64,000 nt of DNA from the IMG/VR virus record IMGVR_UViG_3300029571_000006. The stretch is one strand, 5' to 3'. Of the stretch, positions 15,469 through 43,336 are shown piece after piece (positions within the stretch are counted from its first letter, which is position 1; each line of letters begins with the position of its first letter). The notes beneath the pieces are model-generated. The model searched no databases. It was not told where the DNA came from and was given only the letters and a program-made list of their open reading frames with translations. Made by a program: the position numbers and the translations under genes. This stretch comes from a virus (Duplodnaviria; Heunggongvirae; Uroviricota; Caudoviricetes).

Positions 15469-16425
15469 TTATAAAAACCATGCAAGTTTCCATCTTTCAT
15501 AGTCTTCTTCATAATCTCTTACAAGCTGTCTATGTTTCGCTTCTATTGTGTTTCTTCCGCTATCCAGCTTGTATGTCTTCCCCTCCATCTGCTGAGATAC
15601 GATTGCATTAAAATCTGGAGGTACTCCAATGGTTTCTTGCTCGTACATTCTGTAGAAAACTCCAGAAATCCATACTCTAAAGTAACTCAATTTCATCGGC
15701 GTGTTGTCGCTTTTATTCTTCGATCTTCTCGATAGCTCAACTCTCAATGCCTTTATTGTTAAGGCGGATCTTATTCCTCGAATCAATGTATCACCGGCTG
15801 CTCTTTCCTTTCGTATCTCATGTGAATAATTTGGATGTAGGAATGCAAAGCTATCTAATTCAACACAATTATGAAAAGCCTCCAACCCTTCTGGATAGAT
15901 AGGAACAACCGTATATTTCTTATCGTATTTTACCGTGAGAGTTTTAAAATCAACATCTGAGCATTTTACATTTAAGATGTCCTCCTCATCCATTCCAGCG
16001 TATGCCAACCAATAATAACATCTATATATATTATCAGTCGCCTGTCTCTCCGCCGGTTCGCATATTGCATTCAAATAATTCTGCAGATGCTTCGGATTTG
16101 CTATCGTTTGCTGTTTTACTTTATCAAGCCCAACAGTCTTAATCTCTAGCATTCCTGGACTTGCTCCGTCAATCCCCATCTCTATGCACCATTTTACATA
16201 CTCTTTTAATAGAATGAGTTTTGACCACTTGCTTCTTGCTCTAAATCCTGCAAGCTGATTTACCATCGGTTGAAGCTCTTCTGCAGATCTCGTGCATAAA
16301 TCTGCTCCCCATCCTTCTTCAAATTGCTCTGTGCTATTGAATATTGACTCACATAATTTCAATTTGTACGGTGTCGAAGCAACCGTTTCTCTCATAAATC
16401 GATGTTTCACTTCTTCATTATACAT
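15469..16425 (-). CDS. Hypothetical protein (318 aa)
   Basis: Long ORF 9 bp downstream of the MazF-like gene. No motif I can name with confidence. Confidence 0.4.
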   Translation of the reverse strand: MYNEEVKHRFMRETVASTPYKLKLCESIFNSTEQFEEGWGADLCTRSAEELQPMVNQLAGFRARSKWSKLILLKEYVKWCIEMGIDGASPGMLEIKTVGLDKVKQQTIANPKHLQNYLNAICEPAERQATDNIYRCYYWLAYAGMDEEDILNVKCSDVDFKTLTVKYDKKYTVVPIYPEGLEAFHNCVELDSFAFLHPNYSHEIRKERAAGDTLIRGIRSALTIKALRVELSRRSKNKSDNTPMKLSYFRVWISGVFYRMYEQETIGVPPDFNAIVSQQMEGKTYKLDSGRNTIEAKHRQLVRDYEEDYERWKLAWFL

Positions 16426-21294: not shown

Positions 21295-22134
21295 CTATAC
21301 CTCCAATAAAATAAGCTCATCGATATACAGTCTTCCTTCTCCCTTGAATATTGGGATCTCTTTGTCGATAACCCACGCATTCTCTGATTCACTAGAATCT
21401 CTTAATTCGCATGTTTCTGTCCTGTCTGCAGAAATACTCACGATACGACGATTCTTAACACAGCAACTTCCTCTCTTTTGATGGGAAGGTAAATCGTTCC
21501 AGTTGATTTCCTTTTGCGTCATCAACATATCCTGAATCTGATTACATGTTTTGTGCTGTAATTCTTTGTGACTAAAGTAAGCCTGTCCAAGCATCTGTAT
21601 AGAATTTCTACTCGCATCGAGCTGTCTCCAGTAGATATTGTTCGTTACTTCTTCCTTTGGAATATTAAAAACTCTGGCATCAAACATAGCACCTTTGTTA
21701 ATCGCTTTTGCGTAAATTCCAAACTGCTTCGTGATTTCGTCTCCCGAACCACTATTTGCATACTTAACAGCGTACCTCTTCATCTTGCGATTAAATTCAA
21801 GTGTTGCCATACTCGCTACAATACTGCACATTTTCTGTACTTTGTAATCGAACCATGCATCGGATTCAAGCCTCTTATAATCAGTTAAAACCAATGTAAT
21901 TTCATCTGATTGTGTATATCCAAGCACACAGCCTTGAATATTCTCACACAGATATTTCATCGTATCCTGCATAGCAGACATTAAAACTTCGTCAAATGGC
22001 TTTTGAAAACCTTTTGTAAATGTGTGAAACGCCCGACCATCAACTCTGATGATTACGGGCGTTCTTCTCATTAACATATTTTTTGACACTGCTTCATATT
22101 TCTTCATTCGTTTTGCAAGTGCTGATGTATCCAT
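21295..22134 (-). CDS. Thg1-like protein (tRNA-His guanylyltransferase family, 3'-5' nucleotide addition)
   Basis: VIIRVDGRAFHTFT and SDEITLVL match the Thg1/TLP family signature. RBS AAAGGAGG. Confidence 0.55.
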   Translation of the reverse strand: MDTSALAKRMKKYEAVSKNMLMRRTPVIIRVDGRAFHTFTKGFQKPFDEVLMSAMQDTMKYLCENIQGCVLGYTQSDEITLVLTDYKRLESDAWFDYKVQKMCSIVASMATLEFNRKMKRYAVKYANSGSGDEITKQFGIYAKAINKGAMFDARVFNIPKEEVTNNIYWRQLDASRNSIQMLGQAYFSHKELQHKTCNQIQDMLMTQKEINWNDLPSHQKRGSCCVKNRRIVSISADRTETCELRDSSESENAWVIDKEIPIFKGEGRLYIDELILLEV

Positions 22135-22155: not shown

Positions 22156-23170
22156 TTAAATGTTTTCACATTTTATGCCTGAGATTCCCTGTATTCCATT
22201 AACTCGAACATATCTTTCACCTTCCCACCAGTCGTTAAGAAATTCTACATCGTACATATTGTATGGACTTGCGACTTCGTTTATACGTTCATAGTTCTTT
22301 CCATCCCGTGAAATTTCTATTGACACAATTACATCTTCCGTGCAATGACACTCCCAATATTTTTTGATATATTTAGATACAACATCATATCCTGTCTGCT
22401 TGTTATTCAGCACTTCCGTCTGTGGATTGACCGCATATTCAAACGATGGCATTAACTGGAGTTTGAATAGGTTCTTTTCATGCATAGAATCGATTCTTTC
22501 CTTTGTACGCTTGTCATCAATCTCTCCAGTTCTGATATATCTATCCAGAACATCATATGTAAAGCCAAGATTGTCCTCATCTGTATGACCGCACAGCCCA
22601 TCTGTAGGAACTTTGTCCACAAGTTCTGCTGGAAGATTAAGCTCTCTACCGAGAGCCTTAACTTCTGTGACTGTCAGTTTTGACAGAGGACTGAAATCAC
22701 CTGCTCCATCACCATATCTGGTTGCATATCCTACCCAGTCTTCTGAAAGATTACATGTATTTGCGACTCTGCCTCCGACCGTCTGAGAAACCGCATAGAG
22801 TGTTGCCATTCTAATTCTTGCCGGAAGATTTACAGATGTCTGTACAGACCAGTGGTCTCCGAGCTGCGGTTTAATTTCATGCTTTAATGCTCTAATTGCG
22901 CTATGAATATTGATTGTACAATACTCAATTCCAAGATGATTAACCAGTTTGTATGATGCGTCAATGTCAACCTGCTCACCATTTGGCATAAGCACACCGA
23001 ACACTCTGTCCTTACCAAGAGCCTCTACGCATAATGCAGCTACTACACTTGAATCTTTCCCACCAGAAATTCCAACCACAGCACAGCAATCATTACCGTT
23101 TTCGTTAAACCAATTTCTGATCCACTGAACCACTTCATTCTTTACTTCTTTAGCATCAAACTCACTCATG
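22156..23170 (-). CDS. nadE: NH3-dependent NAD+ synthetase NadE-like (PP-loop ATP pyrophosphatase) with C-terminal extension
   Basis: PP-loop VGISGGKDSSV, ARIRMATLY, GYATRYGDGAGDFSPLSKL...DGLCGHTDEDNLGFTY. Confidence 0.65.
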
Positions 23171-23569
23171 TTTAACATCTCCATTCTCAATCTTTTCTAT
23201 TAGTGTAAGTAATTCATTGTATATTTGGATCAATCCGCCTCTGTCATCAATATAAACATTTGCATATATTTTTCTACCAGAAAAAGCGACAGAAGAATCA
23301 CAATTAACCCCTTTGTACTTAATGTTATTGTCTTTGAGATATTGTTCAATCATTTCGTATTTGTCTTCGCCATTACCGGTAAATATAATCACCTCTGAAT
23401 ACTTCTCCCATCTATGCAAAAGACTGATAACATTTTCATACGTTCTTCCCTTTTTATGAAAGTCATAAATTGTATCATCAAAATCCACGCAGAAGATAAG
23501 CTTGCCGTATTTTTTAAATTCTTCTTCTAATCTATTGTATGAATTATTTGACTGAAGATAAAAATCCAT
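23162..23569 (-). CDS. HAD-superfamily phosphatase-like protein
   Basis: DxDxT motif (CVDFDDTIY). RBS GGAGGA before MDFYLQ. Confidence 0.4.
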   Translation of the reverse strand: MDFYLQSNNSYNRLEEEFKKYGKLIFCVDFDDTIYDFHKKGRTYENVISLLHRWEKYSEVIIFTGNGEDKYEMIEQYLKDNNIKYKGVNCDSSVAFSGRKIYANVYIDDRGGLIQIYNELLTLIEKIENGDVKHE

Positions 23570-23570
23570 A

Positions 23571-25031
23571 TTATTTTCCTCCATACATCCTTTCTCTAAT
23601 ATCCAGGAATGAGTCTTCTCTGACAAATGCTCCGTCTTTGAATACCGTTGTGAGTAAACTATCATCGCTCATTTCCATCAACTGATCTTGACATTTAAGC
23701 TGTCCATCTTCCTCGTAAACTCTGCAGCATCCCTTGTGTGATTTCTTCAAGTGACTTGTATCTGTTTTTGGATCTTTATAAATCATCACTTTTTCGCCAT
23801 TGATGATGCCATATGTTGCTTTCATTGCGATTCCAAATGTATCTCTTGTAGCCACAATGAGTTTTCCGTCCTCTGCAATCGCAGTAAAGCAGAAAGCACC
23901 AACGCCATATGCGATATTGTTCGCCGCAAACCCTCGTTTTTCTAACTCTCTCCAGATAGTATCTACATTTGATAATGTGCATCCATCTCCGTAGATAATA
24001 CCGATGTGTGGATCGAGCACTTTATACCCCTTACTGTTTGTGGTTCCTCCGAAAATCTCCCATAACTTTTCAACAGTTTTCACAGAAATATCCACAATGT
24101 CTCCGCTATCTGGTCTTACTAACAGCTTACCATGATGATTCATAATTTCTTCCTTGCATTGTGGAAGGATATTATTTATCATATTCCAGTAATCGTAGGT
24201 GTCGGATACCATACTAAATGATGTATTTGGATATAATTCAGTGAGTAATCTTTTGACAAAGGTAATTTCATCTCCATCTACAGAGAAGTTTGCACCCATA
24301 ACGCTATGCTCTGTCGATACAGCTCCAATGCCAATGCCTTCTTCTCTGCAATTTGCATTGTAATATTTGTCAATATAAGAAATTGCCGGAATCGTAGAAG
24401 TCTTATCGAATGATAAAAGCCATGATGCCGAGCATCTTACTGCCTCATCCATACAGGACATTCCTCGCATTCCAAAATCAGCGCAAGCAAGTTTACCACT
24501 CATTCCGTCTGTTGTATTATCGTACCAGTAGTCAGCAATATTTCGATACATATTACCAATCGTTGCATGACAGCATGGTTTCCAAAGTTCTACCTGTAAA
24601 ATACATTCAATCCACTGAACAAGCCATGCAAAGTCCTCATGTGTATTTGTGATTTCAATACATGGAATTCCCATTGTAACCATCGTTCCTTCTGGAAGCG
24701 CTCTGATTTCTAATGGTAAATATCCCAATCTGTGCAGTTGCACAATTTTATCAATATCATAATTACCATCGCCGATTTGAATATTCATTGTTTCTTTATA
24801 CTGACTTACCACATCTTCTTCCGTCTTACCAAAGAAATTATCATTGAAATATCCGATAAGATACTCTTTGATAAATGCCTGAAGACCAAAGAATACCATT
24901 TTATCCTGTTGCCTCAACATAGATCTTCTAGGAACCCAATATGACACGAGCTTCGTCAATCCTTTTGGATACATTCTGTCGTGACACTGTTTGTATGTAT
25001 CAGATAATAATAAAGCCATTACATCATTCAT
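23571..25031 (-). CDS. Nicotinamide phosphoribosyltransferase family protein (NAMPT/NadV-like; could be a Namat-type variant)
   Basis: N-terminal LLSDTYKQCH (NAMPT DSYK motif). 486 aa, type II PRTase pattern throughout. Confidence 0.75.
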   Translation of the reverse strand: MNDVMALLLSDTYKQCHDRMYPKGLTKLVSYWVPRRSMLRQQDKMVFFGLQAFIKEYLIGYFNDNFFGKTEEDVVSQYKETMNIQIGDGNYDIDKIVQLHRLGYLPLEIRALPEGTMVTMGIPCIEITNTHEDFAWLVQWIECILQVELWKPCCHATIGNMYRNIADYWYDNTTDGMSGKLACADFGMRGMSCMDEAVRCSASWLLSFDKTSTIPAISYIDKYYNANCREEGIGIGAVSTEHSVMGANFSVDGDEITFVKRLLTELYPNTSFSMVSDTYDYWNMINNILPQCKEEIMNHHGKLLVRPDSGDIVDISVKTVEKLWEIFGGTTNSKGYKVLDPHIGIIYGDGCTLSNVDTIWRELEKRGFAANNIAYGVGAFCFTAIAEDGKLIVATRDTFGIAMKATYGIINGEKVMIYKDPKTDTSHLKKSHKGCCRVYEEDGQLKCQDQLMEMSDDSLLTTVFKDGAFVREDSFLDIRERMYGGK

Positions 25032-25033
25032 TT

Positions 25034-25858
25034 CTACACCTCCAAAACCGTTATCTTCTCATGCTCTCCAGCAAATAAACTGCCTGTTGTAAATAATCTC
25101 TCTACTGTATTATCTTCGAGCGACCTTATCAATGTACCTTTTTCTCTGTCGAGTATTGAGTTTTCTGTATGTGTTGCATACGCATAAATTGTCTTAGCTC
25201 CAATACGTTTTAATTCTTTTGCACTGTAATATAGTGATCCGCCGTATGCAATGATGTCATCAATCATAAGTACTGTCTGACCGCCAAGTCCCATACCATT
25301 TGTTCTTACATCCAAACCAAGGATTTTGCCCGTATCCCAGTCACGTTTCTTTTCTCCATAGCAATATGGCATTCCCTGCAATAATCCTGAATACCTTTTA
25401 GCCGCACCCTCGTCCGGGAAATATAAGATAATTGGATTTTCTCCTATTTGTTTCAAAACTTCCTTAATATATCTTTCCGGTGTATATACAAGCACATTAT
25501 TCAGCAGTGCAGCTCCTACATTACTGTGAACATCAAGAATTCTGACAACATCAAACCGTAACCAGTTAATTGCATCTGCAAATCCCCGAAGCGTGAACAC
25601 CTCTCTTTGATTATGAATACGATCCATTCTTGCATTTGGAAGATACAGTAGATTAAGATAAATTTCCTGTATACACGGCATATTTCTGAGATGTCTAGTC
25701 ACATAGATGAGTGTAGATAGCTCCTCTTCCATTTCAAATTTCCAAGTAATCTCATGCGTATTTCTCCACTCCATCTTCGGGAGATTTTCAAGAACAATTC
25801 TCTGTGTTCCATCTGGGAAATGCTCTACCTTTACTTCTGTCCCATCTAAAATAATCAT
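25034..25858 (-). CDS. Ribose-phosphate pyrophosphokinase family protein (Prs-like; could be an ADP-ribose pyrophosphokinase Adps-type variant)
   Basis: FPDGTQRIVLENLP, VLMIDDIIAYGGSL (PRPP-binding loop) and GAKTIYAYATH. Confidence 0.65.
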   Translation of the reverse strand: MIILDGTEVKVEHFPDGTQRIVLENLPKMEWRNTHEITWKFEMEEELSTLIYVTRHLRNMPCIQEIYLNLLYLPNARMDRIHNQREVFTLRGFADAINWLRFDVVRILDVHSNVGAALLNNVLVYTPERYIKEVLKQIGENPIILYFPDEGAAKRYSGLLQGMPYCYGEKKRDWDTGKILGLDVRTNGMGLGGQTVLMIDDIIAYGGSLYYSAKELKRIGAKTIYAYATHTENSILDREKGTLIRSLEDNTVERLFTTGSLFAGEHEKITVLEV

Positions 25859-25861
25859 TCT

Positions 25862-26407
25862 TTACTCTCCTATCACATTTATCTGACAGCTTTTCATCAC
25901 TTCTAATGCGGCTGTATGTTTATCTGGAGTTGATCCTGCGCAGCAGCTTGCGTCCACAGTAACCTCCACATCTGGGTATGGGTACAAAGTTTTAATAATC
26001 AGTGCATTTGTAATCACACAAATATCTGTATCTAACCCACATAACTCAATGACTCTCGTGCCATCACCTTCAACATATACATACTTATCTAAGATATGTT
26101 GCCAAGAAAAATATCCAAAAGTATCTTTATCTACAACCTCATATGTGCCAGGAATTGTTTCCAGACCAATCTGCCACCCAGTTGTTCCCTTAACGCAATG
26201 TTTAATTGGTAACTTCTTCCCTTCTGCAGATGAAAAATATGTCTCATCTAAGTGAGTATCTCTTGTAAATACAACCGCATCACCCTGCCGGATATATCTC
26301 TCGATCTTTTCCTTTACTTTTGGAAGAATCGCTTTCGCCTCATTGCTTCCTAAAGCACCATCAATAAAATCGTTCTGAACATCTACAACGATCAAAATTC
26401 TATTCAT
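25862..26407 (-). CDS. Isochorismatase-family hydrolase (nicotinamidase PncA-like)
   Basis: ILIVVDVQNDF, conserved Lys and Cys (ELCGLDTDICV). Confidence 0.55.
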   Translation of the reverse strand: MNRILIVVDVQNDFIDGALGSNEAKAILPKVKEKIERYIRQGDAVVFTRDTHLDETYFSSAEGKKLPIKHCVKGTTGWQIGLETIPGTYEVVDKDTFGYFSWQHILDKYVYVEGDGTRVIELCGLDTDICVITNALIIKTLYPYPDVEVTVDASCCAGSTPDKHTAALEVMKSCQINVIGE

Positions 26408-27051: not shown

Positions 27052-27867
27052 CTACCCCGCAAAATTCTCGACTTCTACTATGTTACTGTCCATCAGATAA
27101 TTCCTTGTTCTTCCTCCAAGATTCAATTCCTTATACGCAGCTTCGATTTCCTCGGAAGTGATTCCGATGTAATCCAGCGTCTGTGCGGGCGAAGAATGAT
27201 TCAGCATCTTCTGCAAAAGCAAAAGCTTTCTGCTATCATTGTTCGACATCACCATCTGGTGATAGCAAAATGTTTTCCGTAAACTATGTGTAGCAATCCT
27301 TATGTTCAGGTGCAAATCGACCGCAATTCCTTTTAAAATCCGGTCTATTGACTGTTTTGATAATGGCTGATTCGTTGATTTCCCCCTATTGGATTCGCTA
27401 CGAAATAGATAATCACTCAACGTAACGCCTGGCGTATTCTCAAGATATAAAGTTACCGCCTCTATAACGGCGGTATTGATTGTGATATATCTATTCTTTT
27501 TTCTTTTCCTTGTATTTCTTGTTTTCTTTTCAAATACTGGGAAGTTATCACGAAATGTGAAATTATCATTGATAAGATTTGAGAATCTCAGCATCCTTAA
27601 ATCGCTGACTCGAAGTCCAAAGTTGATGCCGACTATGAATAGCATGTTATCTCTGTATCTTTTATTAGAAATGAGAAATTCAGAAATTGCATAGATATCA
27701 TCCAGACTTTTAATTGGCTCCGCAGCATGTTCCGGTGCTAATTCGCAATGGGTTTCCTCTTTCGCAGGAGCAATTAAACCGGCTGCGGACTTAACCTTAC
27801 TTCTCTGTAGTGCCTGTAAATCAATTACCTTATTTTTAGCATCTGCAATATTTACAATTTCACCCAA
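27052..27867 (-). CDS. Tyrosine recombinase / phage integrase family protein
   Basis: Box I GLRVSDL, HxLRxT (ATHSLRKTFCY), C-terminal LNHSSPAQTLDYIGITSEE with the catalytic Tyr. TTG start after GGAGGTG. Confidence 0.7.
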   Translation of the reverse strand: MGEIVNIADAKNKVIDLQALQRSKVKSAAGLIAPAKEETHCELAPEHAAEPIKSLDDIYAISEFLISNKRYRDNMLFIVGINFGLRVSDLRMLRFSNLINDNFTFRDNFPVFEKKTRNTRKRKKNRYITINTAVIEAVTLYLENTPGVTLSDYLFRSESNRGKSTNQPLSKQSIDRILKGIAVDLHLNIRIATHSLRKTFCYHQMVMSNNDSRKLLLLQKMLNHSSPAQTLDYIGITSEEIEAAYKELNLGGRTRNYLMDSNIVEVENFAG

Positions 27868-27879
27868 AGCTTACACCTC

Positions 27880-28908
27880 CTAAATTAGTCCTCTTACAAC
27901 TCTTTCGTTTACGTCCATCACAAATTCCTGTATTGCCTTATAGTCTGGCTTTTCAGGAAGATCTGTATTTTCTTTTGCATACTTCATCTTCTTTTCGTAG
28001 TCATCGACCATTTCAAAGAACTCCGGTATTGGCTGTCTATTACCATCAAGGTATTCACCATTTCTGATTGACATCAGCAGTTCATGTTCTTTCTCTCTGA
28101 ATGTTACAATCTCTTTTCTCTCAAGAATATCAAGGCACATCATATAGAGCCTGATTAGATGCATCATATGCTTTCCTAATTTGTTATGCTCTATCGCATT
28201 CTTATTTCTTTTCCCTACCTTGGCGTAGTCCTTCACCACATTATGCATTTCAGACCACATTGATTTATAATCCCGAAGTGGATATCTTGTTAAATGCACA
28301 TCCATATAAATTTCGGAATCCATATCTTCCCTATCCGACTTATCGATATACAACTTGATCGCGTCATCCGGATATTCAAAATATCTTTCTTTGAAGTCTG
28401 CACCCACGTTACGTATACTGTTTAATATGTGTTGCTCCCGCTGCGCTTGACCGACAAGCCTTGCTGCTTTATTATCAAGTCTTCTAAGCTGAGCCGTAGC
28501 ATATCCACCGAAAGCCTGTGCCGCTTTCTTTGAAAGGAACAAATCCTTATTATGTAATAATTCCTGTCCTACAGGAGACAGAAATAAATAATGCTCAGGC
28601 TTTAACCCAAGCATCTCAATCGTATTTGGATTGCAATTACAAAGCAAACTTATTAACTTATTGAACGCATACACTGTAGTATCCGTTTTCTCATCAACAA
28701 ACTGCTCGTAATGTTGATTTGTAAGAATTTCTTCCTTACTATTCAGAGCGCATCCTCTTACATCAAGGTCAGATGTCTCGTTATTTGTTCCATATGCATG
28801 ACTTCCTCCAAGTCCGATAAGGATGATTCTGTTTCCGAGGTGATCGTTATTTCTAAGGAAATTGTATTCCTCCGACGAGACCATATTTTTAATTGTTTGC
28901 AAATCCAT
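27880..28908 (-). CDS. Nucleotidyltransferase (minimal Pol-beta-fold NTase) with helical C-terminal domain
   Basis: ILIGLGGSHAYGTNNETSDLDVRG = GS...SDxD NTase signature. RBS GGAGGAG before MDLQTIKN. Confidence 0.5.
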   Translation of the reverse strand: MDLQTIKNMVSSEEYNFLRNNDHLGNRIILIGLGGSHAYGTNNETSDLDVRGCALNSKEEILTNQHYEQFVDEKTDTTVYAFNKLISLLCNCNPNTIEMLGLKPEHYLFLSPVGQELLHNKDLFLSKKAAQAFGGYATAQLRRLDNKAARLVGQAQREQHILNSIRNVGADFKERYFEYPDDAIKLYIDKSDREDMDSEIYMDVHLTRYPLRDYKSMWSEMHNVVKDYAKVGKRNKNAIEHNKLGKHMMHLIRLYMMCLDILERKEIVTFREKEHELLMSIRNGEYLDGNRQPIPEFFEMVDDYEKKMKYAKENTDLPEKPDYKAIQEFVMDVNERVVRGLI

Positions 28909-28910
28909 CT

Positions 28911-29154
28911 TACTCCTCCATAATGAATTCATGGATGCTACTCATATAATTCTGAACTTCTTCATCAGAGCATTTCTCAAAGCTTAAACTCAACGGCTTT
29001 GTCAGGTCTAAGCTGAAAATCCCCATAATTGATTTAGCATCAATGATATATCTTCCAGATTGCAGGAACACATCTCCGTCTACTCTGGATGTTTATTTAC
29101 GAACTCCTTAACTTTGTCAATAGAATTTAACATTACTTTACACATGATAATCAT
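28911..29154 (-). pseudogene. HPr-like phosphocarrier-domain gene interrupted by a -1 frameshift near 29080 and lacking the HARPA histidine motif
   Basis: Frame a: MIIMCKVMLNSIDKVKEFVNKHPE*. Frame b: VDGDVFLQSGRYIIDAKSIMGIFSLDLTKPLSLSFEKCSDEEVQNYMSSIHEFIMEE* (KSIMG-type HPr core). Confidence 0.3.
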
Positions 29155-30965: not shown

Positions 30966-31285
30966 TCAGAATTTTAAAACCCTGACAGCGAGATCATACT
31001 CTTTAGCCAGGTCTATCATTGATTTTGTTCCTCTACTTTCTCCGTCCCAAAATGCTACCAAAGCATCGGCGTTTTGAGCCATCTCTTTATTTCTTATATA
31101 TCCAGCCGCTTTACCATACCGCTCCCAGTCTGCCGGGAAGTATGCAACATGGAAACCCATTTCTTTCGCATACTTCTCTCCAAGCCTGTCTGCTCCTCTT
31201 GCGGTTCCGCATACTATGGATATTTCATCACTGATATTCTGCAACAGACGATTCATATTTGCTTTTAACATTTCGTAGTTCGCAA
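30966..31285 (-). CDS. SLOG/DUF2493-like Rossmann-fold protein (YpsA/DprA-related)
   Basis: MFRVIIAGSRSF...SIVCGTARGADRLGEKYA...ADALVAFWDGESRGT pattern. Likely internal start. Confidence 0.4.
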
Positions 31286-31332
31286 ATGATCGGCTACCTG
31301 CAATTATTACTCTGAACATATTATCACCGGAA

Positions 31333-32079
31333 TTACTTTCCTCGCTGTCTCCTTGCCTCTTCGAGAATCTGACGAGCATTTCTTTCTCTCTCAGATGCCT
31401 CAAGTCTTCGATCAGCCGCCTGTGCGCTTGAATCATATGCGATTCGACTACCATCGGCGCGTTCTCTCGTCTTTCTTGCGCCCTCACGAACCCTCTCAAG
31501 CATCCTATCACTCTCGTTGTTCATGCTTAAAGAATCCATGCTCTGATGAAGTTCAATAATCTGACTATCGGCTTCCATCTGGAAAACTACCTGCTCTTTT
31601 TCTTCTTTTAGCTTCTGCAGTTCCTCAGCTGCTTGCTGCATAATCTCTTTCTGATGAGCTTCAACCTCTTTCATCTCATCCACAGTATCTTTTAAAACAT
31701 TGATTTTGCTTTCGAGCGTTGATTTCTTCCGTGCATACTGCATTGCCTCATCTTCTCGATCGCTGTCAATACAAGCATTCATATCGTTTGTAACTTTCAT
31801 AATTTCCTTCCGTGTCTTATGCAGATCATTTTCTGCAGCAGATCTTTTGCCGGAAATTTCAGCAAAACTTGCAGATGCCCTATTGTAAAAATCTTCTTTT
31901 TCTCTAATTGCGGCGTTGTAGTAATCTCTCGCTCCTTCTGGAGTCTGAGCGTCCTGGCGCATCACCTCGTCAGTTCTGCCTTTCATTTTCACACGAAGCT
32001 GTTTTCCAAAGACAGTTCCAAAGAGTATAATCACTGCAAGCACAATTACTACAATCACAATAAACATAAAGTTCGTCAT
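31333..32079 (-). CDS. Membrane-anchored coiled-coil protein (PspA/IM30-like?)
   Basis: N-terminal TM (FMFIVIVVIVLAVIILFG) followed by ~200 aa of heptad-like charged coiled coil. RBS TAGGAGGA. Confidence 0.35.
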   Translation of the reverse strand: MTNFMFIVIVVIVLAVIILFGTVFGKQLRVKMKGRTDEVMRQDAQTPEGARDYYNAAIREKEDFYNRASASFAEISGKRSAAENDLHKTRKEIMKVTNDMNACIDSDREDEAMQYARKKSTLESKINVLKDTVDEMKEVEAHQKEIMQQAAEELQKLKEEKEQVVFQMEADSQIIELHQSMDSLSMNNESDRMLERVREGARKTRERADGSRIAYDSSAQAADRRLEASERERNARQILEEARRQRGK

Positions 32080-32088
32080 GATGTCCTC

Positions 32089-32670
32089 CTACTCTGCGTC
32101 AATTCCGTACTGTCTGCAAAGAGCTGCAAGACCTCCGTTATATCCGCTACCAACTGCTTTAAATTTCCATTCACCGTTGTGTCGGTAAATCTCTGCAACA
32201 ACGATGGCTGTTTCTGTAGAGAAGTCTTCGCTCAGGTCAAATCTCATCAGTTCTTCTCCTGTGTCTGCGTCAACAACTCTTACGTATGCGTTTTCTACCA
32301 TTCCAAAATTCTGGAGTCTGCTTTCTGCATCGTAAATTGTTACAGTTACAGCGATTGATTCGTAATCATCCGGAACCTTGTCAAGTTTGATGTTGATTAC
32401 CTCATCATCTCCCTCTCCTTCGCCTGTTCGATTGTCGCCCATGTGAACTACGCTCTTTGAATTGTGTGCCAGATTTCCATAGAATACAAAGTCTCCATCC
32501 GATCCGACTTTACCATTTTCTTTTGTCATAAACACGGATGCATCTAGGTCAAAATCAGATTCTCCGTCGTAGTGATTGATGTCCCACCCAAGACCTACAA
32601 ATATATTCTTTAAAGAAGGGCGACCTTTCGTAAGGTCTACCCTCTGCCCTTTACTTAATAATACTGACAT
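32089..32670 (-). CDS. TerD-domain protein (tellurium-resistance TerD/TerE/TerZ family) paralogue 1
   Basis: KGQRVDLTKG, GLGWD, DLDASVF, GDNRTGEGEGDDE(V/T)I, EWKF(K/N)A(V/I)G motifs. Confidence 0.8.
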   Translation of the reverse strand: MSVLLSKGQRVDLTKGRPSLKNIFVGLGWDINHYDGESDFDLDASVFMTKENGKVGSDGDFVFYGNLAHNSKSVVHMGDNRTGEGEGDDEVINIKLDKVPDDYESIAVTVTIYDAESRLQNFGMVENAYVRVVDADTGEELMRFDLSEDFSTETAIVVAEIYRHNGEWKFKAVGSGYNGGLAALCRQYGIDAE

Positions 32671-32681
32671 GTGAATCCTCC

Positions 32682-33254
32682 TTATTTATATCTGTTTGCC
32701 AATTCACTGATACTTGTGTCGTTTGTTCCCTGTCCGATTGCATTGAACTTCCACTCTCCGTCTTTCTTATACACTTCTGCAAATACCATAGCAGTTTTTC
32801 CTGCATAATTTTCAGAGAGATTATATTTGCAAATTTCCTTTCTACTTGCGTCATCCACAAGTCTAATAAATGCGTTCTTAATCAGACCAAAGTCCTGTTT
32901 TCTGGATGTACAAGCATAGATATTAACAACGAATACAATCTTTTCGACATCGGATGGCATCTTTTCAAGATTTACTGTAATCTGTTCATCATCACCATCT
33001 CCGTCTCCGGTAAGGTTGTCTCCATGATGATATACACATCCGTCTTCAGCTGATCTGTCTCCGTAATATACAACACCCTTATACTTATTACCTTTACCCA
33101 GGATAATTGCAGACGCATCACAGTCAATGTTTGGCTTATGACCGAACACACCCTGTTTTGCTGCATCCCAGCCGAGACCTACAACCACCTTTTTAAGCCC
33201 TTCTACTTCTTTTGACAGATTGATTTTCTGCCCCTTTACTAAACTTACTGACAT
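32682..33254 (-). CDS. TerD-domain protein paralogue 2
   Basis: Same TerD motifs (KGQKINLSK, GLGWD, GDNLTGDGDGDDEQI, EWKFNAIG). Confidence 0.8.
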   Translation of the reverse strand: MSVSLVKGQKINLSKEVEGLKKVVVGLGWDAAKQGVFGHKPNIDCDASAIILGKGNKYKGVVYYGDRSAEDGCVYHHGDNLTGDGDGDDEQITVNLEKMPSDVEKIVFVVNIYACTSRKQDFGLIKNAFIRLVDDASRKEICKYNLSENYAGKTAMVFAEVYKKDGEWKFNAIGQGTNDTSISELANRYK

Positions 33255-33271
33255 ATGCCAACCCTTCTTTC

Positions 33272-33850
33272 TTATAAATTCAGTCCAAAGTTTCTACCGA
33301 CTGCTGCTAATCCTCCAGTAAATCCAGATCCAACAGCATTGAATTTCCATTCTCCATTTCTGCTGTACAGCTCTCCGGCAACTACGCCTGTCTCCAGTGA
33401 GAAGTCCTCATTCAAATCGTATCTGAAAAGCTCCTCATTTGTATCTGCATCGTATGCACGGATGTATGAATTATCAACCATACCAAAGTTTTGCAGCCTG
33501 TTTTCTGCATCGTAAATTGTTGCAGCGAAACTGATTTTGGAGATATTTGCCGGAATCTTTTCTAACTCGACCGTCATGGTTTCATCATCGCCGCTTCCTT
33601 CTCCTGTTCTGTTATCTCCTGAGTATGTAAGTGCTCCGCTCGGATGCTGTGGCTGTCCGTAGAATACGAAATCCTGCTCTCCTGTGACCTTGCCAGACTC
33701 ATCAGTGAAGAACGCCGACACATCAAGATCGAATTCTTCGTCTCCGTCATATCTGTTTGTGTCCCAGCCAAGAGCAAACACAACCCTCTTCAGCCCAGCA
33801 TTTCCTTTTGTAAGATCAATCTTCTGACCTTTCACTAAACTAATTGACAT
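33272..33850 (-). CDS. TerD-domain protein paralogue 3
   Basis: Same TerD motifs (KGQKIDLTKG, LGWD, GDNRTGEGSGDDETM, EWKFNAVG). Confidence 0.8.
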   Translation of the reverse strand: MSISLVKGQKIDLTKGNAGLKRVVFALGWDTNRYDGDEEFDLDVSAFFTDESGKVTGEQDFVFYGQPQHPSGALTYSGDNRTGEGSGDDETMTVELEKIPANISKISFAATIYDAENRLQNFGMVDNSYIRAYDADTNEELFRYDLNEDFSLETGVVAGELYSRNGEWKFNAVGSGFTGGLAAVGRNFGLNL

Positions 33851-33863
33851 GTTACAAACCTCC

Positions 33864-36455
33864 TTATTTTCTATTATCTACAGCCTTTCTTATAAGATCG
33901 ACTGGGATAACCATAAACGCAAGTGCGATAATTACAAGCCAATGATTTAAGTCAAGCGCTGTTGCCTTAATCAACGTTCCTGCGAAATCACACAGAATTA
34001 CTGTCATCGCACAGATTCCAACTGCAATATATGAGAACAGCTTATTCTTTCCTATACCTTTAAACAGATTCATATGTTCTGTACGGATATTGAATCCGTT
34101 GAATACAGCCATGAAACATAAGAGCGCAAATCTCGCCGTCATAGCCTCCACATCAGTTGCGAACATATTTGATACTGGACTGAATGTGATGATTCCGTAT
34201 AAGGCGATAAACGTAGCTGTACTGATTGCTATACGTTTCTTAGCTCCTCGAATAAATAATCCAGAACCCTTTTTAATAGGTCGCTCAGACATATATTCTT
34301 CCTTCGGCGGCTCACCTCCAAAAGACAGCGAGTTAAGTGAATCCATAATGATATTCACAATCAGAATTTGTACCGAAGCCAGCAGAGCACCGGTTGCAAC
34401 CATAGGATAAATCACACTCAAGATAAGCAATGCGATGTTGATTGGTAACTGGAACTCAAGAAACATCATGATGTTGTGCATGAATGTTCTTCCAAGTTCC
34501 ACAGCTTTTACAACACTTGCAAAGTTATCATCAGTCAGAACAATATCAGATGCCTCTTTTGCTACATCAGACCCGCCCTGCATACCGAATCCTACATCTG
34601 CTCTTTTTAATGCCGGTGAATCATTCACACCGTCTCCGGTCATCGCAACAGACTTTCCAATTTCCTGAGCAAGAGTTACCAGTCTCAGTTTTGTATTAGG
34701 TGAACATCTTGAAATAACTCTCAGTTTTGGAATGATACTTTTTACTTCGTCATCAGACATCGCTTCAAAGTCATCATTTGTAATAGCCAGATCTCCAGCC
34801 ATATAAATTCCACATTCTTCTGCCACGGCTTTTGCTGTCTCAAGGCAATCTCCGGTAATCTCGATTACCTGAATACCTGCTTTATGAGCCATAGCCACTG
34901 CATTTGGAACTTCCTCTCTTACCGGGTCAACAACTCCGATAATTCCTAACAATGTCATGTTATTTGGAAGCTCATTCTCAACAAGTTCTTCCTTTGATTG
35001 CGTAAGAGCAATACATCTCATTGACTTCGTTGTCATCTCTTTAATGTTCTCAAGCAGTCTAATCTTATCGCTGTCTGTAAATGTCTGAATTCCATCTCCG
35101 AGAGCTGTCGTACAGTGCTCAATGAGTTTTTCTGGAGCACCTTTATAATAGGTAACTTCGTTTGAACAACTTACTGCGGAATATTTATTAGAACTATTGA
35201 AGACCTGTTTCGCTTTGACCTGTAAGTCATTCACGATTTTTCCATACTCTTCAGAATCCGTCAGAGTTAATACCGCACGGTCAATGGAATTGCCTCCAGT
35301 AATTTCTCCGTTGCCGTCGAATACTGCGCTATTATTGATACAGATATTATTGACCATAGCTTTCCATAATTCAGACGATTCATCAACTTCATCTACAAAT
35401 GCATCGATGATTTTCTTTGGGGTCATGACTCCGGTTGTAAGCGTACCAGTCTTATCCGTACAAATAATATCCACATAAGCAAGCTCTGGAATTTTGCCTG
35501 GATTCTTCGCCAGAATATTGAACGTCTCCATCGTCCGAACATTTTGCTTTGTTACGAGCTTTACAATCAGTGGAAGCCCCTCCGGAACTGCTGCTACAAT
35601 AATTGTTAATGCGACAGAGAAATTCTGTGCGATTTTCTGGATCACATCTAAAATATTTCCTCCGAAATAGTTGCTGAACCCAACACTCATGATGCCTGTC
35701 ATTGTCAAAACTGCAAATGTTACCACAGCTGCGACGGTTCCCCATTTTGAAATAAAGTCACTTAAATTATCGAGTGCGATATCAAGAGCTGTTTTCGGAG
35801 ATTCCAATGTCTGCATCTTAACCATCGTATCCCCGTTGACTGTATTTACGCCTACATCTGTGACAATCATCTTGCCCTCGCCTGACATAACCGTAGTTCC
35901 TGCAAACAAGCAATTCGGGTTTGTGTATGCAGATGTTGATGTAGTTTTTGCGTGTATGTATCCTTGAATCGGTGTCTTCTTACACTCTTTTGTCTCTCCA
36001 TTGATTGCTGCATTATTCACTGAGATTTTTCCATCTACAATATAACCATCAGCGAAAATCTCCTGTCCCATACCTACACATACTAAATCTCCAACAACCA
36101 ACTCATCCTTGTTGATTGTCTGAACTTTCCCATCACGAATTACATCGCAGTACCTGACCGAAGTCTTTGCTCGCAACTCTGCTGCTGACTTCTGAACACC
36201 AAGTCCAGTCTTTACAGCAATCACTGTCACGATTGCAAGTACCACAAGAATCATGATTGGATCAGAAAGTTCCATCACTCCCATGAATCCGAGGAATAAC
36301 TGCAGAACAGCAATGGCAATCAAAATCATTGTGATTTTTTCACTCAATGCCTCTTTTGCAAAGTCATACCACTTCTTCATCTTCGGTTCTGGAAGTTTAT
36401 TACTGCCATGCATTTCCCTGCTTCGCAGAACCTCACTACTACTTAATCCATTCAT
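33864..36455 (-). CDS. P-type cation-transporting ATPase (Ca2+-type, P2 family)
   Basis: DKTGTLT phosphorylation motif, TGDGVNDSPALKRADVGFGM hinge motif, ten predicted TM segments. Start MNGLSS after RBS GAAAGGAG (the track start lies inside a terminator hairpin). Confidence 0.8.
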   Translation of the reverse strand: MNGLSSSEVLRSREMHGSNKLPEPKMKKWYDFAKEALSEKITMILIAIAVLQLFLGFMGVMELSDPIMILVVLAIVTVIAVKTGLGVQKSAAELRAKTSVRYCDVIRDGKVQTINKDELVVGDLVCVGMGQEIFADGYIVDGKISVNNAAINGETKECKKTPIQGYIHAKTTSTSAYTNPNCLFAGTTVMSGEGKMIVTDVGVNTVNGDTMVKMQTLESPKTALDIALDNLSDFISKWGTVAAVVTFAVLTMTGIMSVGFSNYFGGNILDVIQKIAQNFSVALTIIVAAVPEGLPLIVKLVTKQNVRTMETFNILAKNPGKIPELAYVDIICTDKTGTLTTGVMTPKKIIDAFVDEVDESSELWKAMVNNICINNSAVFDGNGEITGGNSIDRAVLTLTDSEEYGKIVNDLQVKAKQVFNSSNKYSAVSCSNEVTYYKGAPEKLIEHCTTALGDGIQTFTDSDKIRLLENIKEMTTKSMRCIALTQSKEELVENELPNNMTLLGIIGVVDPVREEVPNAVAMAHKAGIQVIEITGDCLETAKAVAEECGIYMAGDLAITNDDFEAMSDDEVKSIIPKLRVISRCSPNTKLRLVTLAQEIGKSVAMTGDGVNDSPALKRADVGFGMQGGSDVAKEASDIVLTDDNFASVVKAVELGRTFMHNIMMFLEFQLPINIALLILSVIYPMVATGALLASVQILIVNIIMDSLNSLSFGGEPPKEEYMSERPIKKGSGLFIRGAKKRIAISTATFIALYGIITFSPVSNMFATDVEAMTARFALLCFMAVFNGFNIRTEHMNLFKGIGKNKLFSYIAVGICAMTVILCDFAGTLIKATALDLNHWLVIIALAFMVIPVDLIRKAVDNRK

Positions 36456-36480
36456 TTCTTTACTCCTTTCGTTTGTTTTG

Positions 36481-36520
36481 TATATATAAATAGCGAGTTG
36501 CATTGCTGCAAGCTCGCTAT
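36481..36520 (-). terminator. Rho-independent terminator between gene 36529..37041 and the ATPase gene
   Basis: Minus-strand near-perfect 14-bp stem ATAGCGAGCTTGCA.../...TGCAACTCGCTAT followed by TTTATATAT. Confidence 0.5.
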
Positions 36521-40713: not shown

Positions 40714-42930
40714 CTATTCGTCTTTGAATTTCTTACCGGAGTCTGATTCGTAAAACATATCTCGCAATGTGCAGATATTTCTCGGAACACTATCTAAATC
40801 CTCTACATCATGAAGTGTTTTAACCCATGCGTAGAACTGATTTGCAAGAGGTGTTACCAATGCCGCTGTTCTTTTCGGGTCAATATATCCTTTCTTAATG
40901 GCTTCATGCGAAATTGATCTCATGAATTTCCAGAAATTGTAGTACGCCAGTTTCAGCTTAACCATGTATCCGTTTGAATCTTCAATAACGAATCCCTCGA
41001 TGCGTCTTCCGTCATACTTGTAATCTTCATCCATTACCATATTGTACCAATCAAAGAAGTCCTGCCATGTTTCAATCTCATATCCCAATTCTTTATGAGG
41101 AATGTTGAGAGATTCAGCAACAGTACACATCTCCTCAAAACTAAGCTTCTGGAATTTCATATCATTTGATACGATATCCAGCAGAAATACTCTGCTCTCC
41201 GGATACTTAATAATGTGAGGGTCTCTTTCCATGTCTACATTTTCAAATACAAATGATACGTCATGCTCTTTACAATAAGCATTGATCTTATCAAGAGTAT
41301 CGTCACCAAGCTGTGTATGAAGTGCTTCAGCAAACCATTCAGCATATGACCCTTCCGGATTTGACTTAGTAGTCACAAACAGTTTTCCTGTTTCTGGATT
41401 ATTGGATACGATTCCAAGATATCCATTCTCCTTGACGTATGCCCTCACAGGGAATGCCAACTTATCCTGCAGCTTGTCTAATTCTGTCTCTGGTCTTTCG
41501 TTGATGTTAAAGAACTTATCATAAGCTCTGGCAACAATTTTCTGTTTTGGAATATCGATGTATAATCCTCTTGCCTTTGTTGTCTGCTCGTCCCAGATTT
41601 TGTCATAAAACGCTGTTTTGGTGAAGTTAAATGATGAGATATCTCCATACTGCTTTTCCTTGATGTACTTATTTCTTCTAAGCTCAAGAATCCACTCTCC
41701 GACGGAATCCGCACCAGCAGACACCTCTTCCGGTTCTCTAAATACTGTATTCTTTACCTCTACCGTATTGAAAGTACCGTCGTTATCGAGGATAACAGCT
41801 CTCAGGCTTCCACCAAACTCAACTCTTCCTTCAAGATTGAAGGCATGATTGTTGACTTTTACCGGAAGTCCTTTTGTATTTCTATGACCATGAATCTGAT
41901 AACAATTTTCATCCATCTTATCCTCGAATGTTGCATCTACCTGCTCAGCATCGTTGTATCTTCCAACACCCTTAATCATCTGACTGGTAGATACCATTGT
42001 GAGATTATCTGGAATCATACTTAACCCAGCATGTGTGGCAAGGACTGTCTTACCTCTGAATTCGTAATAAGCGCACTGACCCATCCGTCTGTAAAGCTTC
42101 CTGATTGACTTCTTATCAATACCGGCTGCTTCGATTTCTGCTTTTGTATGGAATTCAAACTCTTTAGATGCCGTCACTTTATCATGCGCCCAGTCCCATA
42201 ACCACCGCTCATGATTACCCTCAAGAAGCAGCACATTCGGCTTATCATATGTTGAAAGCAAGAATTTCAAGACATCAGCGTTTTCAATTCCTCGATCTGT
42301 GTAATCACCACAGAAGATGTAGAATTCATCATCTTTAAAACCGCCATTCGCTTCAAAATATGTATTCAATGCTGTATTACATCCATGAATATCTCCAATA
42401 TGATGGATACGTTTGTACTGATCCAGATTGAATTTCTTCATAAACACAGCGTTTAACTCATCTGGCTGAATAACCTTAATGCCTGACGGAATTTTCTGTG
42501 TCTCGAACCTTGCATACATCTTATCGATTACTTCTTCCGGCACTCTTTTCAGTTCCTGTCGTCCTCGATTTCTTTCCTTTGTTACCTCGATTGGAACAGT
42601 CGTCATATCAACGCAGTAGATTCGGTATCTGTACTCATCGCACATCTTCTTATATCTATTCATTTCAGATGTTTTAGAGTTAGTAGCATCAATCACAGTA
42701 AACTCGCCATTCTTCATTCTTGTCTCCAAGATATTGAACAGTGTTTTCCACACAATATTATCATTTGCCTGACTGATTGCGTGTGTTCCGTCCGGCATCA
42801 TCTGCGGACTTGAGCACATCATTCTAATATTATCTGCTGATAATGCATACTGTTTTAATCCGTTCTGCTCAATCCATGTGGATTTCCCACATCCTGCGCT
42901 TCCTCTTAATAACAGTAAAACTCTCATGTT
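40714..42930 (-). CDS. Pnkp-like RNA repair enzyme: polynucleotide 5'-kinase + metallophosphoesterase (3'-phosphatase) + nucleotidyltransferase/ligase domain
   Basis: P-loop LLLRGSAGCGKST, phosphoesterase GDIHGC...GDYTDRG...GNHE, ligase motif I KENGYLGIV. RBS GAGAGGTG before MRVLLLL. Confidence 0.6.
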   Translation of the reverse strand, partial: NMRVLLLLRGSAGCGKSTWIEQNGLKQYALSADNIRMMCSSPQMMPDGTHAISQANDNIVWKTLFNILETRMKNGEFTVIDATNSKTSEMNRYKKMCDEYRYRIYCVDMTTVPIEVTKERNRGRQELKRVPEEVIDKMYARFETQKIPSGIKVIQPDELNAVFMKKFNLDQYKRIHHIGDIHGCNTALNTYFEANGGFKDDEFYIFCGDYTDRGIENADVLKFLLSTYDKPNVLLLEGNHERWLWDWAHDKVTASKEFEFHTKAEIEAAGIDKKSIRKLYRRMGQCAYYEFRGKTVLATHAGLSMIPDNLTMVSTSQMIKGVGRYNDAEQVDATFEDKMDENCYQIHGHRNTKGLPVKVNNHAFNLEGRVEFGGSLRAVILDNDGTFNTVEVKNTVFREPEEVSAGADSVGEWILELRRNKYIKEKQYGDISSFNFTKTAFYDKIWDEQTTKARGLYIDIPKQKIVARAYDKFFNINERPETELDKLQDKLAFPVRAYVKENGYLGIVSNNPETGKLFVTTKSNPEGSYAEWFAEALHTQLGDDTLDKINAYCKEHDVSFVFENVDMERDPHIIKYPESRVFLLDIVSNDMKFQKLSFEEMCTVAESLNIPHKELGYEIETWQDFFDWYNMVMDEDYKYDGRRIEGFVIEDSNGYMVKLKLAYYNFWKFMRSISHEAIKKGYIDPKRTAALVTPLANQFYAWVKTLHDVEDLDSVPRNICTLRDMFYESDSGKKFKDE

Positions 42931-43336
42931 TTCACCTCTCATATATTTCTTAGTTGGTTGCATAAGTAACTCCACTCCAGACCTCACTCATTGCCTTTAC
43001 GCATGACGATATTGCAACCACAATAATGCCTCAAGTGCATTACCGATAGTCTTTTCAGTATACTTATAGGAGCAGGGGTGTTAGTGTTTCCCGTCTCAGT
43101 CTACCAAGGTATTTACGAAGCCAGAAAAGGAATAATCGCTCCGTCCGTTGAGGCTACGCCTTACGCATCGCTGAAAAGCTCATCGTTTCGCTTCGATGGT
43201 GCAACTTCCACCTAACCTCTATTTCTTTTACGCCCAAATATATAAACAAATATATGCCAACCACAACATACTTGTTTATATATCCACCTTGGAACCCGAC
43301 CGCTACTCACAGCCGTGATATGTTATCTCAACCGGG

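Follow-up and report, generated by a model that had tools for sequence, protein, structure and literature searches.

A phage gene module combining an altered Namat with PncA and NadE: a candidate deamidated form of NARP1

The window, as we call the whole stretch of 64,000 nucleotides analysed here (IMG/VR virus record IMGVR_UViG_3300029571_000006, Caudoviricetes), carries on its minus strand five consecutive genes (22156–26407) that are best read as one operon-like module. In the order of transcription these are a PncA-like protein, a Prs-like protein, a NAMPT-like transferase, a HAD-like protein and NadE. The Prs-like and NAMPT-like proteins are related to Adps and Namat, the two enzymes of the NARP1 pathway of reconstitution of nicotinamide adenine dinucleotide (NAD+). 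The module is not plain NARP1, because the equivalents of Asp215 and Ala242 of Namat are changed, and Namats of this subtype are constantly accompanied by PncA and NadE. These two features together point to a pathway that probably proceeds through nicotinic acid, for which the literature examined gives no precedent. The module is most readily understood as a single pathway of four or five enzymes, set apart from the published NARP1 by its pyridine substrate. We estimate at roughly 0.6 the probability that it rebuilds NAD+ from its cleavage products by such a deamidated NARP1.

An earlier note on this DNA had singled out adjacent NAMPT-like and Prs-like genes at 23571–25858 as a NARP1-type pair rebuilding NAD+ from ADP-ribose (ADPR) and nicotinamide. 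Indeed, this interval is filled by exactly two abutting minus-strand open reading frames (ORFs), and the Prs-like one contains the KTIYAYATH motif. The lineage part of the claim stands, as both proteins resemble validated Adps and Namat more closely than canonical Prs and NAMPT. The use of nicotinamide does not, since the Asp that binds the amide corresponds to Ser212 in the window protein and Ala242 corresponds to Ser239. The comparison with canonical Prs and NAMPT that the note had suggested yielded neither clustering with the canonical proteins nor, within the window, an NMNAT. Judged from the sequences, the family assignment holds; the interpretation as a whole is partly supported.

The Namat pocket and its partner genes

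The NAMPT-like protein (23571–25031, 486 aa) matches Pfam NAPRTase (1.5e-27) and NAMPT_N (2.1e-10) and the PHROG family phrog_448 (7e-164). In PDB it scores 395 bits with the Namat of phage SPbetaL1 (9w5x/9w5w) and 187 bits with human NAMPT; the aligned 9w5x sequence is that of SPbetaL1 Namat as translated from its genome. The identity to the experimentally validated Namats is 43% for FADO and 41% for SPbetaL1. These comparisons support placing the protein in the Namat lineage of NARP1 and not with canonical NAMPT.

In the crystal structure of SPbetaL1 Namat the nicotinamide pocket is formed by F189, R192, D215, A242, R306, D13' and Y15'. The D215 residue makes a hydrogen bond with the amide of nicotinamide, and the D215A substitution cuts the NAD+ output about 8-fold (PMC12774641). 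Five of these seven residues are kept in the window protein, the changed ones being exactly D215 (Ser212) and A242 (Ser239). The residues of the Nampt-like core (F189, R192, His245, R306, D308, D13', Y15' and R399' in SPbetaL1) align with F186, R189, the His of TEHS, R306, D308, D11, Y13 and R396, respectively. The T395-R396-D397 triplet is also conserved, and Lys210 occupies the position of SPbetaL1 G213. The residue equivalent to 215 is Ser in all 80 close relatives of the window protein, and Ala in the lineages of MT835544 and of phage Phass-1.

The SPbetaL1 D215 position corresponds to Asp219 of human NAMPT. As quoted in two reviews, this residue 'defines substrate specificity' and the D219S substitution 'switches the substrate affinity' (Khan 2006 via PMC7096376 and PMC4919578). 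The positions that next best discriminate the Namats with Asp from those without it are H187, G213, S239, I240 and V304 of SPbetaL1. Their human counterparts (H191, G217, S241, V242 and I309) line the nicotinamide site and the tunnel; H191 and G217, as well as A244, the counterpart of SPbetaL1 A242, are inhibitor-resistance sites. Hence the divergence between the two groups is focused on the pyridine site.

We considered 305 loci, viral and bacterial, 255 viral ones coming from four protein-guided scans and from GenBank phages. Each Namat was typed at SPbetaL1 positions 215 and 242, and the flanks were searched for partner genes. Among 173 viral loci with Ala or Ser at the former position and Ser at the latter, PncA is present in 171, NadE in 169 and Adps in 172, and the loci lacking a partner are mostly contigs that apparently end near the module. 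None of the 75 viral loci with Asp and Ala has PncA or NadE, while 71 have Adps; the seven loci with Glu and Ala all have Adps and, again, neither of the other two genes (in total for the Asp/Glu viral loci, 0/82, 0/82 and 78/82 for PncA, NadE and Adps, respectively). In GTDB, with one genome per species, PncA is found in 43 and NadE in 36 of 47 non-Asp loci, as opposed to 0/3 Asp loci for both. Over viral and bacterial loci together this amounts to 214/220 for PncA and 205/220 for NadE in the non-Asp group, and 0/85 for each in the Asp/Glu group. Neither PncB nor NadD was detected in the window or in the flanks of the 220 non-Asp loci. PncA and NadE, which the earlier note had listed as part of a NAD toolkit, are not loosely attached extras but near-obligate partners of the non-Asp Namats, and ordinary NARP1 loci lack them.

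The two pocket positions were also tabulated for the 150 best representatives of clusters at 50% identity: 96 have Asp and Ala, one has Asp and Gly, and 51 have A, S or V at position 215 paired with S, G or T at position 242, with no mixed states. Within one single-linkage cluster (at least 60% identity) PncA accompanies 15 of 16 members of the A/S type and none of 78 members of the D/E type. The non-Asp Namats form one clade in the neighbour-joining tree with bootstrap 37/100, and hence we do not claim their single origin. The synteny is kept despite divergence, the identity in most relatives being 43–62% for PncA, 54–65% for Adps and 80–88% for Namat. Moreover, three Namat lineages (the window, MT835544 and Phass-1 types), mutually about 33–55% identical, all keep the gene set.

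Two further observations concern these families. Seven Adps-associated Namats from IMG/VR (L221, L222 and five others) have Glu at position 215 and retain Ala242, representing a third state of the pocket; PncA and NadE are missing from all seven loci, four of which have the HAD-like gene between Namat and Adps. Phage Phass-1 (OQ749652.1, 96860–101298; locus L084), a complete gut phage genome of the 'code 15' clade, has the arrangement PncA-Adps-Namat(Ala,Ser)-HAD-NadE within a large tRNA array, and its NadE and HAD genes are annotated as hypothetical proteins.

The partner genes of the window, listed with the HAD-like gene in the earlier note, are real. The PncA-like protein (25862–26407, 181 aa) belongs to the isochorismatase family (Pfam Isochorismatase, 8.6e-25). 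Its best PDB match, over the full length, is the Pyrococcus horikoshii pyrazinamidase/nicotinamidase 1ILW (1.5e-15), with the Asp of VDxQxDF, the metal-binding motifs RDTH and KHCVxGTxG, and the Cys of GLDTDICV all in register. It scores 28 bits with the NCBIfam PncA equivalog model, under the cut-off of 174. NadE, the NH3-dependent NAD synthetase (22156–23169, 337 aa, ATG at 23169), matches Pfam NAD_synthase (2.4e-56, residues 18–244 only) and TIGR00552 (191.8 bits, cut-off 63.65) and has the ATP-PPase motif GISGGKDSS. NadE is otherwise rare in phages, with matches in 51 of 50,697 records. The C-terminal extension of the window NadE, about 95 aa (22156–22470), has no Pfam match; it is absent from the MT835544 protein (252 aa) and shorter in that of Phass-1 (307 aa).

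We also considered the possibility that PncA and NadE in gut phages are confined to this module, and rejected it, as some short gut-phage contigs carry PncA beside a PncB-like gene, or NadE by itself. One such contig is MT835572.1 (locus L259, 7013–8236), where PncA is directly followed by a PncB-like gene, the two accounting for steps one and two of the classical route. Thus gut phages carry at least two different arrangements based on nicotinic acid.

The module has bacterial versions. In Clostridium acetobutylicum the operon nrtR-pncA-pncB-nadD-nadE was described (Rodionov et al. 2008). Clostridium mobile has a chromosomal operon nrtR-adps-pncA-namat(Ala,Ser)-nadE (locus L294, 5709–10280), surrounded by SelO, TetR, GNAT and MerR genes. 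By analogy between the two operons, Adps and the altered Namat stand in the place of PncB and NadD, that is, at the step from nicotinic acid to nicotinic acid adenine dinucleotide (NaAD). The NrtR-linked operon is found in about 15 other genomes of free-living Clostridium with no obvious prophage context. Namats 82–83% identical to that of the window occur on contigs of metagenome-assembled genomes (MAGs) assigned to Roseburia and Lachnospiraceae, with NrtR near three of the four checked, and the identity of NrtR-flanked copies from Lachnospiraceae, Ruminococcus and related bacteria to the window Namat ranges from about 46 to 83%. Three Bacteroidota loci have NrtR, Adps and a Namat with Asp. 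The phage module was probably captured from Clostridia or Lachnospiraceae, and exchange between phages and hosts from these groups is likely.

ADP-ribose as the co-substrate

The Prs-like protein (25034–25858, 274 aa) matches phrog_619, 'ribose-phosphate pyrophosphokinase' (4e-56), and, weakly and below the cut-off, Pfam Pribosyltran and Pribosyl_synth; the motif in its full form is AKTIYAYATH. It is 32% identical to validated Adps of SPbetaL1 (6e-36) and 33% identical to that of FADO (3e-33), and its similarity to the SPbetaL1 protein equals that of the validated ICP1 Adps. A hidden Markov model (HMM) trained on 72 Adps taken from ordinary NARP1 loci gives 212 bits for the window protein and 134 for Escherichia coli Prs. 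Under the curated Prs model TIGR01251 (cut-off 113) the scores are 68 bits for the window protein, which therefore fails, 106 for SPbetaL1 Adps and 423 for E. coli Prs. As described for Adps, the window protein is without some 20 N-terminal aa of Prs and without its C-terminal helices. It keeps the counterparts of ICP1 Adps R87, H121, D161, K185, R187 and D212/D213, and the loop DDIIAYGGS is closer to DDLSSFGGT of SPbetaL1 Adps than to DDMIDTGGT of Prs. The search of PDB sequences returned no Adps structure, the best match being an archaeal Prs (55 bits), and hence membership in Adps was checked against validated sequences derived from genomes. The pairwise identities and HMM scores support assignment of this protein to the Adps lineage and not to canonical Prs.

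The adenine clamp of Namat gives a mixed picture. The SPbetaL1 clamp-helix motif is GSFTYQYNTRD. The motif GS[FY]TYQY[NV]TRD is intact in the Clostridium lineages of the A/S type (GIGSYTYQYNTRD in at least ten Clostridium species), and that of Phass-1 is near-identical, GAYTYQYVTRD, with Ala for Ser at the second position. The window protein has GAFCFT-AIAEDGKLI-VATRD, with an insertion of 9 aa; the aromatic residue at position 3 of the helix is kept (F380), and position 7 aligns with Val393, although this assignment is not clear. In the clamp loop, SPbetaL1 R40 aligns with Met38, the loops being of equal length with an Arg two residues on, and this loop is poorly conserved even among Namats.

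Accessory genes point to ADPR as well. A Macro domain is encoded inside the operon, between Namat and NadE or after Namat, in 123 of 173 non-Asp viral loci (for the MT835544 copy, Pfam PF01661, 27.6 bits with the cut-off of 22). Macro is the fold of Adpp, a validated ADPR-1''-phosphate phosphatase that extends NARP1 against aRES (bioRxiv 10.64898/2026.01.28.702374). In bacteria, NrtR flanks the module in 33 of 51 loci, three Asp-type loci included, and in none of the viral ones; NrtR is a family of Nudix-related, ADPR-responsive regulators (Rodionov et al. 2008).

In the window the slot between Namat and NadE is occupied by the HAD-like gene (23162–23569, 135 aa). Its product has the DFDDT (DxDxT) motif and matches phrog_1238 (2.6e-23) and, weakly, the NCBIfam BT0820 HAD phosphatase family (4.9e-4, below the cut-off); searches of Pfam and PDB sequences gave no match. 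The AlphaFold2 model (pLDDT 79.7) is cap-less and Rossmann-like, and Foldseek with this model yields weak, insignificant matches (best E 0.019) to cap-less HAD phosphatases such as SCP3, Pnkp1 and T4 PNKP. The homologues of this gene, often mis-named 'phosphoheptose isomerase', are found in 93 phage records; Lak megaphages and crAss-like phages also have them. A homologue directly adjoins an Asp-type Namat in Bacillus phages JackRabbit and Smudge, and one with 80% identity resides on a 633-kb contig of a Clostridium isolate.

Of 77 loci of the window type, 51 have Macro in this slot, 24 have HAD, two have an empty slot, and none has both; in sister phages with Namat 83% identical to that of the window, the Macro domain stands in exactly the HAD slot. 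By its gene position, the HAD-like protein is a candidate non-homologous substitute for Adpp, its substrate being a guess. Like Macro in the sister phages, it would probably turn phosphorylated ADPR into ADPR, thus feeding Adps, the candidate substrates being ADPR-1''-phosphate produced by RES-type NADases, or a breakdown product of ADP-ribose pyrophosphate (ADPR-PP). The alternation of HAD and Macro points to a further putative counter-defence accessory.

Proposed pathway and its alternatives

The substrates and products below are predicted from the gene identities, residue changes, co-occurrence and synteny described above. PncA would convert nicotinamide to nicotinic acid and NH3, and the Adps-like protein would make ADPR-PP and AMP from ADPR and ATP. 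The altered Namat, with Ser212, Ser239 and Lys210, would then join nicotinic acid with ADPR-PP to yield NaAD and pyrophosphate, and NadE would produce NAD+ from NaAD, ATP and NH3, possibly reusing the ammonia released by PncA. In a phage, such a module would counter NAD+-depleting defences. It could have the advantage of needing no free nicotinamide in hosts with strong nicotinamidase, of an irreversible last step driven by ATP, and of ammonia reuse, all three being conjectural.

Several points weigh against this reading. The reaction of nicotinic acid with ADPR-PP to form NaAD is hypothetical for enzymes of this subtype, the route costs more ATP than NARP1, and its selective advantage is a conjecture. 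The D219S data were obtained for human NAMPT with PRPP (phosphoribosyl pyrophosphate), and we take them from reviews; Ala at this position, as in many relatives of the window protein, abolished the activity of NAMPT (D219A), and it lowered that of Namat (D215A). The adenine clamp of the window protein is remodelled, with the insertion of 9 aa, Val at the equivalent of SPbetaL1 Y396 and Met38 in place of R40, and hence the preference for ADPR-PP is less secure in this enzyme than in the Clostridium and Phass-1 lineages. Since classical salvage operons are under NrtR control too, this regulator does not discriminate between the routes. The zero counts of PncA and NadE in the control loci come from tblastn with few queries within about 7–8 kb, which very divergent or distant copies would escape. 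Some non-Asp loci of Clostridium have no NadE nearby. Finally, the association of the pocket signature with the partner genes may reflect few evolutionary events.

The main alternative is a phage-boosted Preiss-Handler route. There, PncA would be followed by synthesis of PRPP by the Prs-like protein, the NAMPT-like protein would give nicotinic acid mononucleotide, host NadD would make NaAD, and the phage NadE would complete the route, so that ADPR would not be a substrate. The replacement of Asp by Ser or Ala and the presence of PncA and NadE suit any route through nicotinic acid, and, as all bacteria have NadD, nothing follows from its absence from the module. The altered clamp of the window enzyme is consistent with this route, as are the fact that SPbetaL1 Namat still uses PRPP in vitro and the NCBIfam name of the window protein, 'nicotinate phosphoribosyltransferase', though the same model also matches the validated Namat with 594 bits. 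However, the Prs-like protein groups with the validated ADPR-pyrophosphorylating Adps and fails the Prs models, and a Macro domain of the ADPR-1''-phosphate phosphatase type, present in most sister operons, is sensible only if ADPR feeds the pathway. The clamp motif is intact in the non-Asp Clostridium lineages and near-identical in Phass-1. Moreover, phages with the true classical deamidated route look different: Sinorhizobium phage Phosso has PncB, NMNAT and Nudix, and no Prs-like gene. We consider the Preiss-Handler variant unlikely, though less so for the window enzyme itself with its remodelled clamp.

Less plausible still is an ordinary NARP1 with a Namat that tolerates Ser or Ala at position 215, PncA and NadE forming a second, independent arm of salvage that supplies PncB and NadD of the host, or serving for detoxification or removal of nicotinamide. 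A nicotinamidase encoded immediately upstream would destroy the substrate of such a Namat, the covariation of the altered pocket with PncA and NadE is nearly perfect whichever way it is read, and the clustering of the other discriminating positions at the pyridine site would not be predicted by neutral tolerance. These observations have to be set against the conservation of all catalytic residues except D215 and A242, the residual activity of D215A Namat (about 8-fold lower) and the adjacency to Adps, typical of NARP1. About equally improbable is a captured host housekeeping operon, retained as an auxiliary metabolic module of general use that increases the NAD+ supply for phage replication and is unrelated to anti-phage depletion, as might be suggested by the NrtR-linked chromosomal versions in free-living Clostridium and by the Roseburia and Lachnospiraceae MAG copies with their NrtR neighbours. 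This explanation concerns the purpose rather than the mechanism, and is compatible with the deamidated NARP1. Still, a route consuming ADPR yields NAD+ only once NAD+ has been cleaved, the Macro/HAD slot mirrors the answer of NARP1-AP to the aRES defence, and the module is situated amid RNA-repair genes typical of counter-defence.

Returning to the deamidated NARP1, we see an even chance for the full set of its parts being true jointly: that the altered Namat works as a nicotinate ADP-ribose transferase, with no such reaction described so far; that PncA, Adps, this Namat and NadE constitute a fourth, deamidated pathway of NAD+ reconstitution, abundant in phages of the human gut and, in the form of an NrtR-linked operon for ADPR recycling, native to Clostridia; and that HAD, as a second and non-homologous phosphatase, alternates with the Macro Adpp, so that more kinds of ADPR derivatives can be salvaged. 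We found no paper tying ADPR-PP or NARP1 to nicotinic acid, nicotinamidase or NadE, subscription journals being poorly covered by this search, so that a prior description is possible. The papers on NARP1, NARP1-AP, NARP3, the structures of Namat and Adps, RyDEP, NrtR and the NAD genes of gut jumbo phages do not describe this combination or a Namat using nicotinic acid.

Depletion of NAD+ is among the commonest anti-phage strategies of bacteria, and NARP1–3 are recent discoveries. If the proposal is true, the nicotinic-acid route brings into this arms race an enzyme activity and an intermediate, NaAD, that are both new to it, and explains the presence of a nicotinamidase beside an enzyme thought to need nicotinamide. 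The pathway would then be a cellular ADPR-recycling operon of gut Clostridia borrowed by phages, and the two-residue signature (positions 215 and 242 in the SPbetaL1 numbering) would let annotators tell the subtypes apart. The exact window Namat stands for 681 database sequences; its relatives at E ≤1e-30 number at least about 8,000, not typed by subtype and with ordinary Namats included. As the module is common in the databases searched, it may influence the flux of niacin and nicotinamide in the gut.

The window and comparison with known systems

The families were assigned with Pfam, PHROGs and NCBIfam, and the matches of the five genes are far beyond chance. The spacers between PncA, Adps, Namat and HAD are 1–3 nt, that between Adps and Namat being 2 nt; the HAD stop and the NadE start overlap by 8 nt. 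The HAD start at 23569 is fixed by the homologues and by the GGAGGA site preceding it. A scan for promoters and terminators gave no promoter signal above chance inside the module. NadE is followed, on the same strand, by a gene for a Thg1-like tRNA-His guanylyltransferase (21295–22134).

The window comes from a large uncultured phage and represents its arm of replication and nucleotide metabolism, with Pol III alpha, DnaB, primase, ERF, ThyX and an RNA-repair set. Its Namat is 99% identical at the protein level to that of one IMG/VR contig, and has dozens of relatives on contigs of roughly 100–180 kb. Megablast of the module against GenBank phages gave no nucleotide match, and hence the module context was taken from protein-level searches.

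The earlier note had reported that no NMNAT is visible, and within the window this is borne out by both Pfam and tblastn. Pfam detected no NMNAT, Nudix or PncB among the matches listed for another 50 ORFs of the window, almost all of them 140 aa or longer, and the same matches contain no CTP_transf_like or NUDIX families, the rest of the genome (about 90 kb) lying outside the window. Tblastn of the window with one phage NMNAT, one Nudix and one PncB gave no match. NadR and PnuC were not found in the window either.

The RNA-repair set around the module consists of the Thg1-like protein, an RlaP-family nucleotidyltransferase and a 757-aa Pnkp-like fusion of a P-loop kinase (AAA_33), a calcineurin-like phosphoesterase and an RNA ligase of the T4 Rnl1 type (respective coordinates as listed: 21295–22134, 27880–28932 and 40714–42987). 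Its composition suggests a counter-defence arm against tRNA-cleaving systems. In phage FADO, a Thg1 gene is situated about 2 kb from its NARP1.

Other genes of the window are of separate interest. About 5 kb upstream of the NAD module there is a SLOG-family protein (30966–31511; Pfam YAcAr, 1.7e-16). SLOG domains are predicted to bind nucleotide-derived ligands, and a link of this protein to ADPR or NAD signalling is conceivable. Two genes resembling tyrosine integrases (27052–27867 and 15469–16425; Pfam Phage_integrase and MrpR_N_CB; phrog_5830) are located in the replication arm of this apparently large genome of virulent type. The replication region also encodes a 387-aa reverse transcriptase (51918–53081; Pfam RVT_1, 2.9e-20; phrog_2825, 3.4e-42). 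An unusual phage cargo is formed by three tandem TerD-domain paralogues (32089–33850; best E 3.9e-83) and an adjoining 879-aa P-type cation ATPase (33864–36503).

Among the known systems, NARP2 (Nampt and bifunctional Nmnat, KVP40) and NARP3 (PnuC and NadR) resemble the module as phage-encoded means of NAD+ restoration. We rejected both for this locus, as the window has no NMNAT, NadR or PnuC, and the association with Adps is the signature of NARP1.

NARP1 itself (Osterman et al.; Bas63, SPbetaL1, FADO, ICP1) is close in many respects: the Prs-like/NAMPT-like pair, the gene order, the Adps and Namat lineages, the Namat core, the lack of NMNAT and the phage context are all shared. A Namat homologue adjoins adps in 97% of the Adps clade (Osterman et al.), and the window pair fits this. 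The differences are Ser in place of Asp215 and Ala242 and the 9-aa clamp insertion in the window protein, the constant PncA and NadE of its subtype, absent from 85 of 85 Asp/Glu-type loci examined, and the predicted product of the transferase, NaAD and not NAD+. NARP1-AP (bioRxiv 10.64898/2026.01.28.702374) is similar in having its operon extended by an accessory gene beside Namat. However, the window lacks the Macro Adpp and has instead the unrelated cap-less HAD-like gene, and a HAD partner of NARP1 is not described in the literature examined.

The Preiss-Handler pathway, or salvage I (PncA-PncB-NadD-NadE), shares with the module the first and the last enzymes, nicotinic acid as an intermediate and, in bacteria, the link to NrtR. 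In the module Adps and the altered Namat replace PncB and NadD, and the ribose-adenylate part is predicted to come ready-made from ADPR rather than from PRPP and ATP. Finally, the bacterial nrtR-prs-nadV operons (Rodionov et al. 2008) and the NARP1 homologues such as that of Paenibacillus foliorum (Lan et al. 2026) also have a chromosomal Prs-like/NadV-like pair by NrtR. They are devoid of pncA and nadE and keep the Asp, whereas the versions of Clostridia add both genes and lose the Asp.

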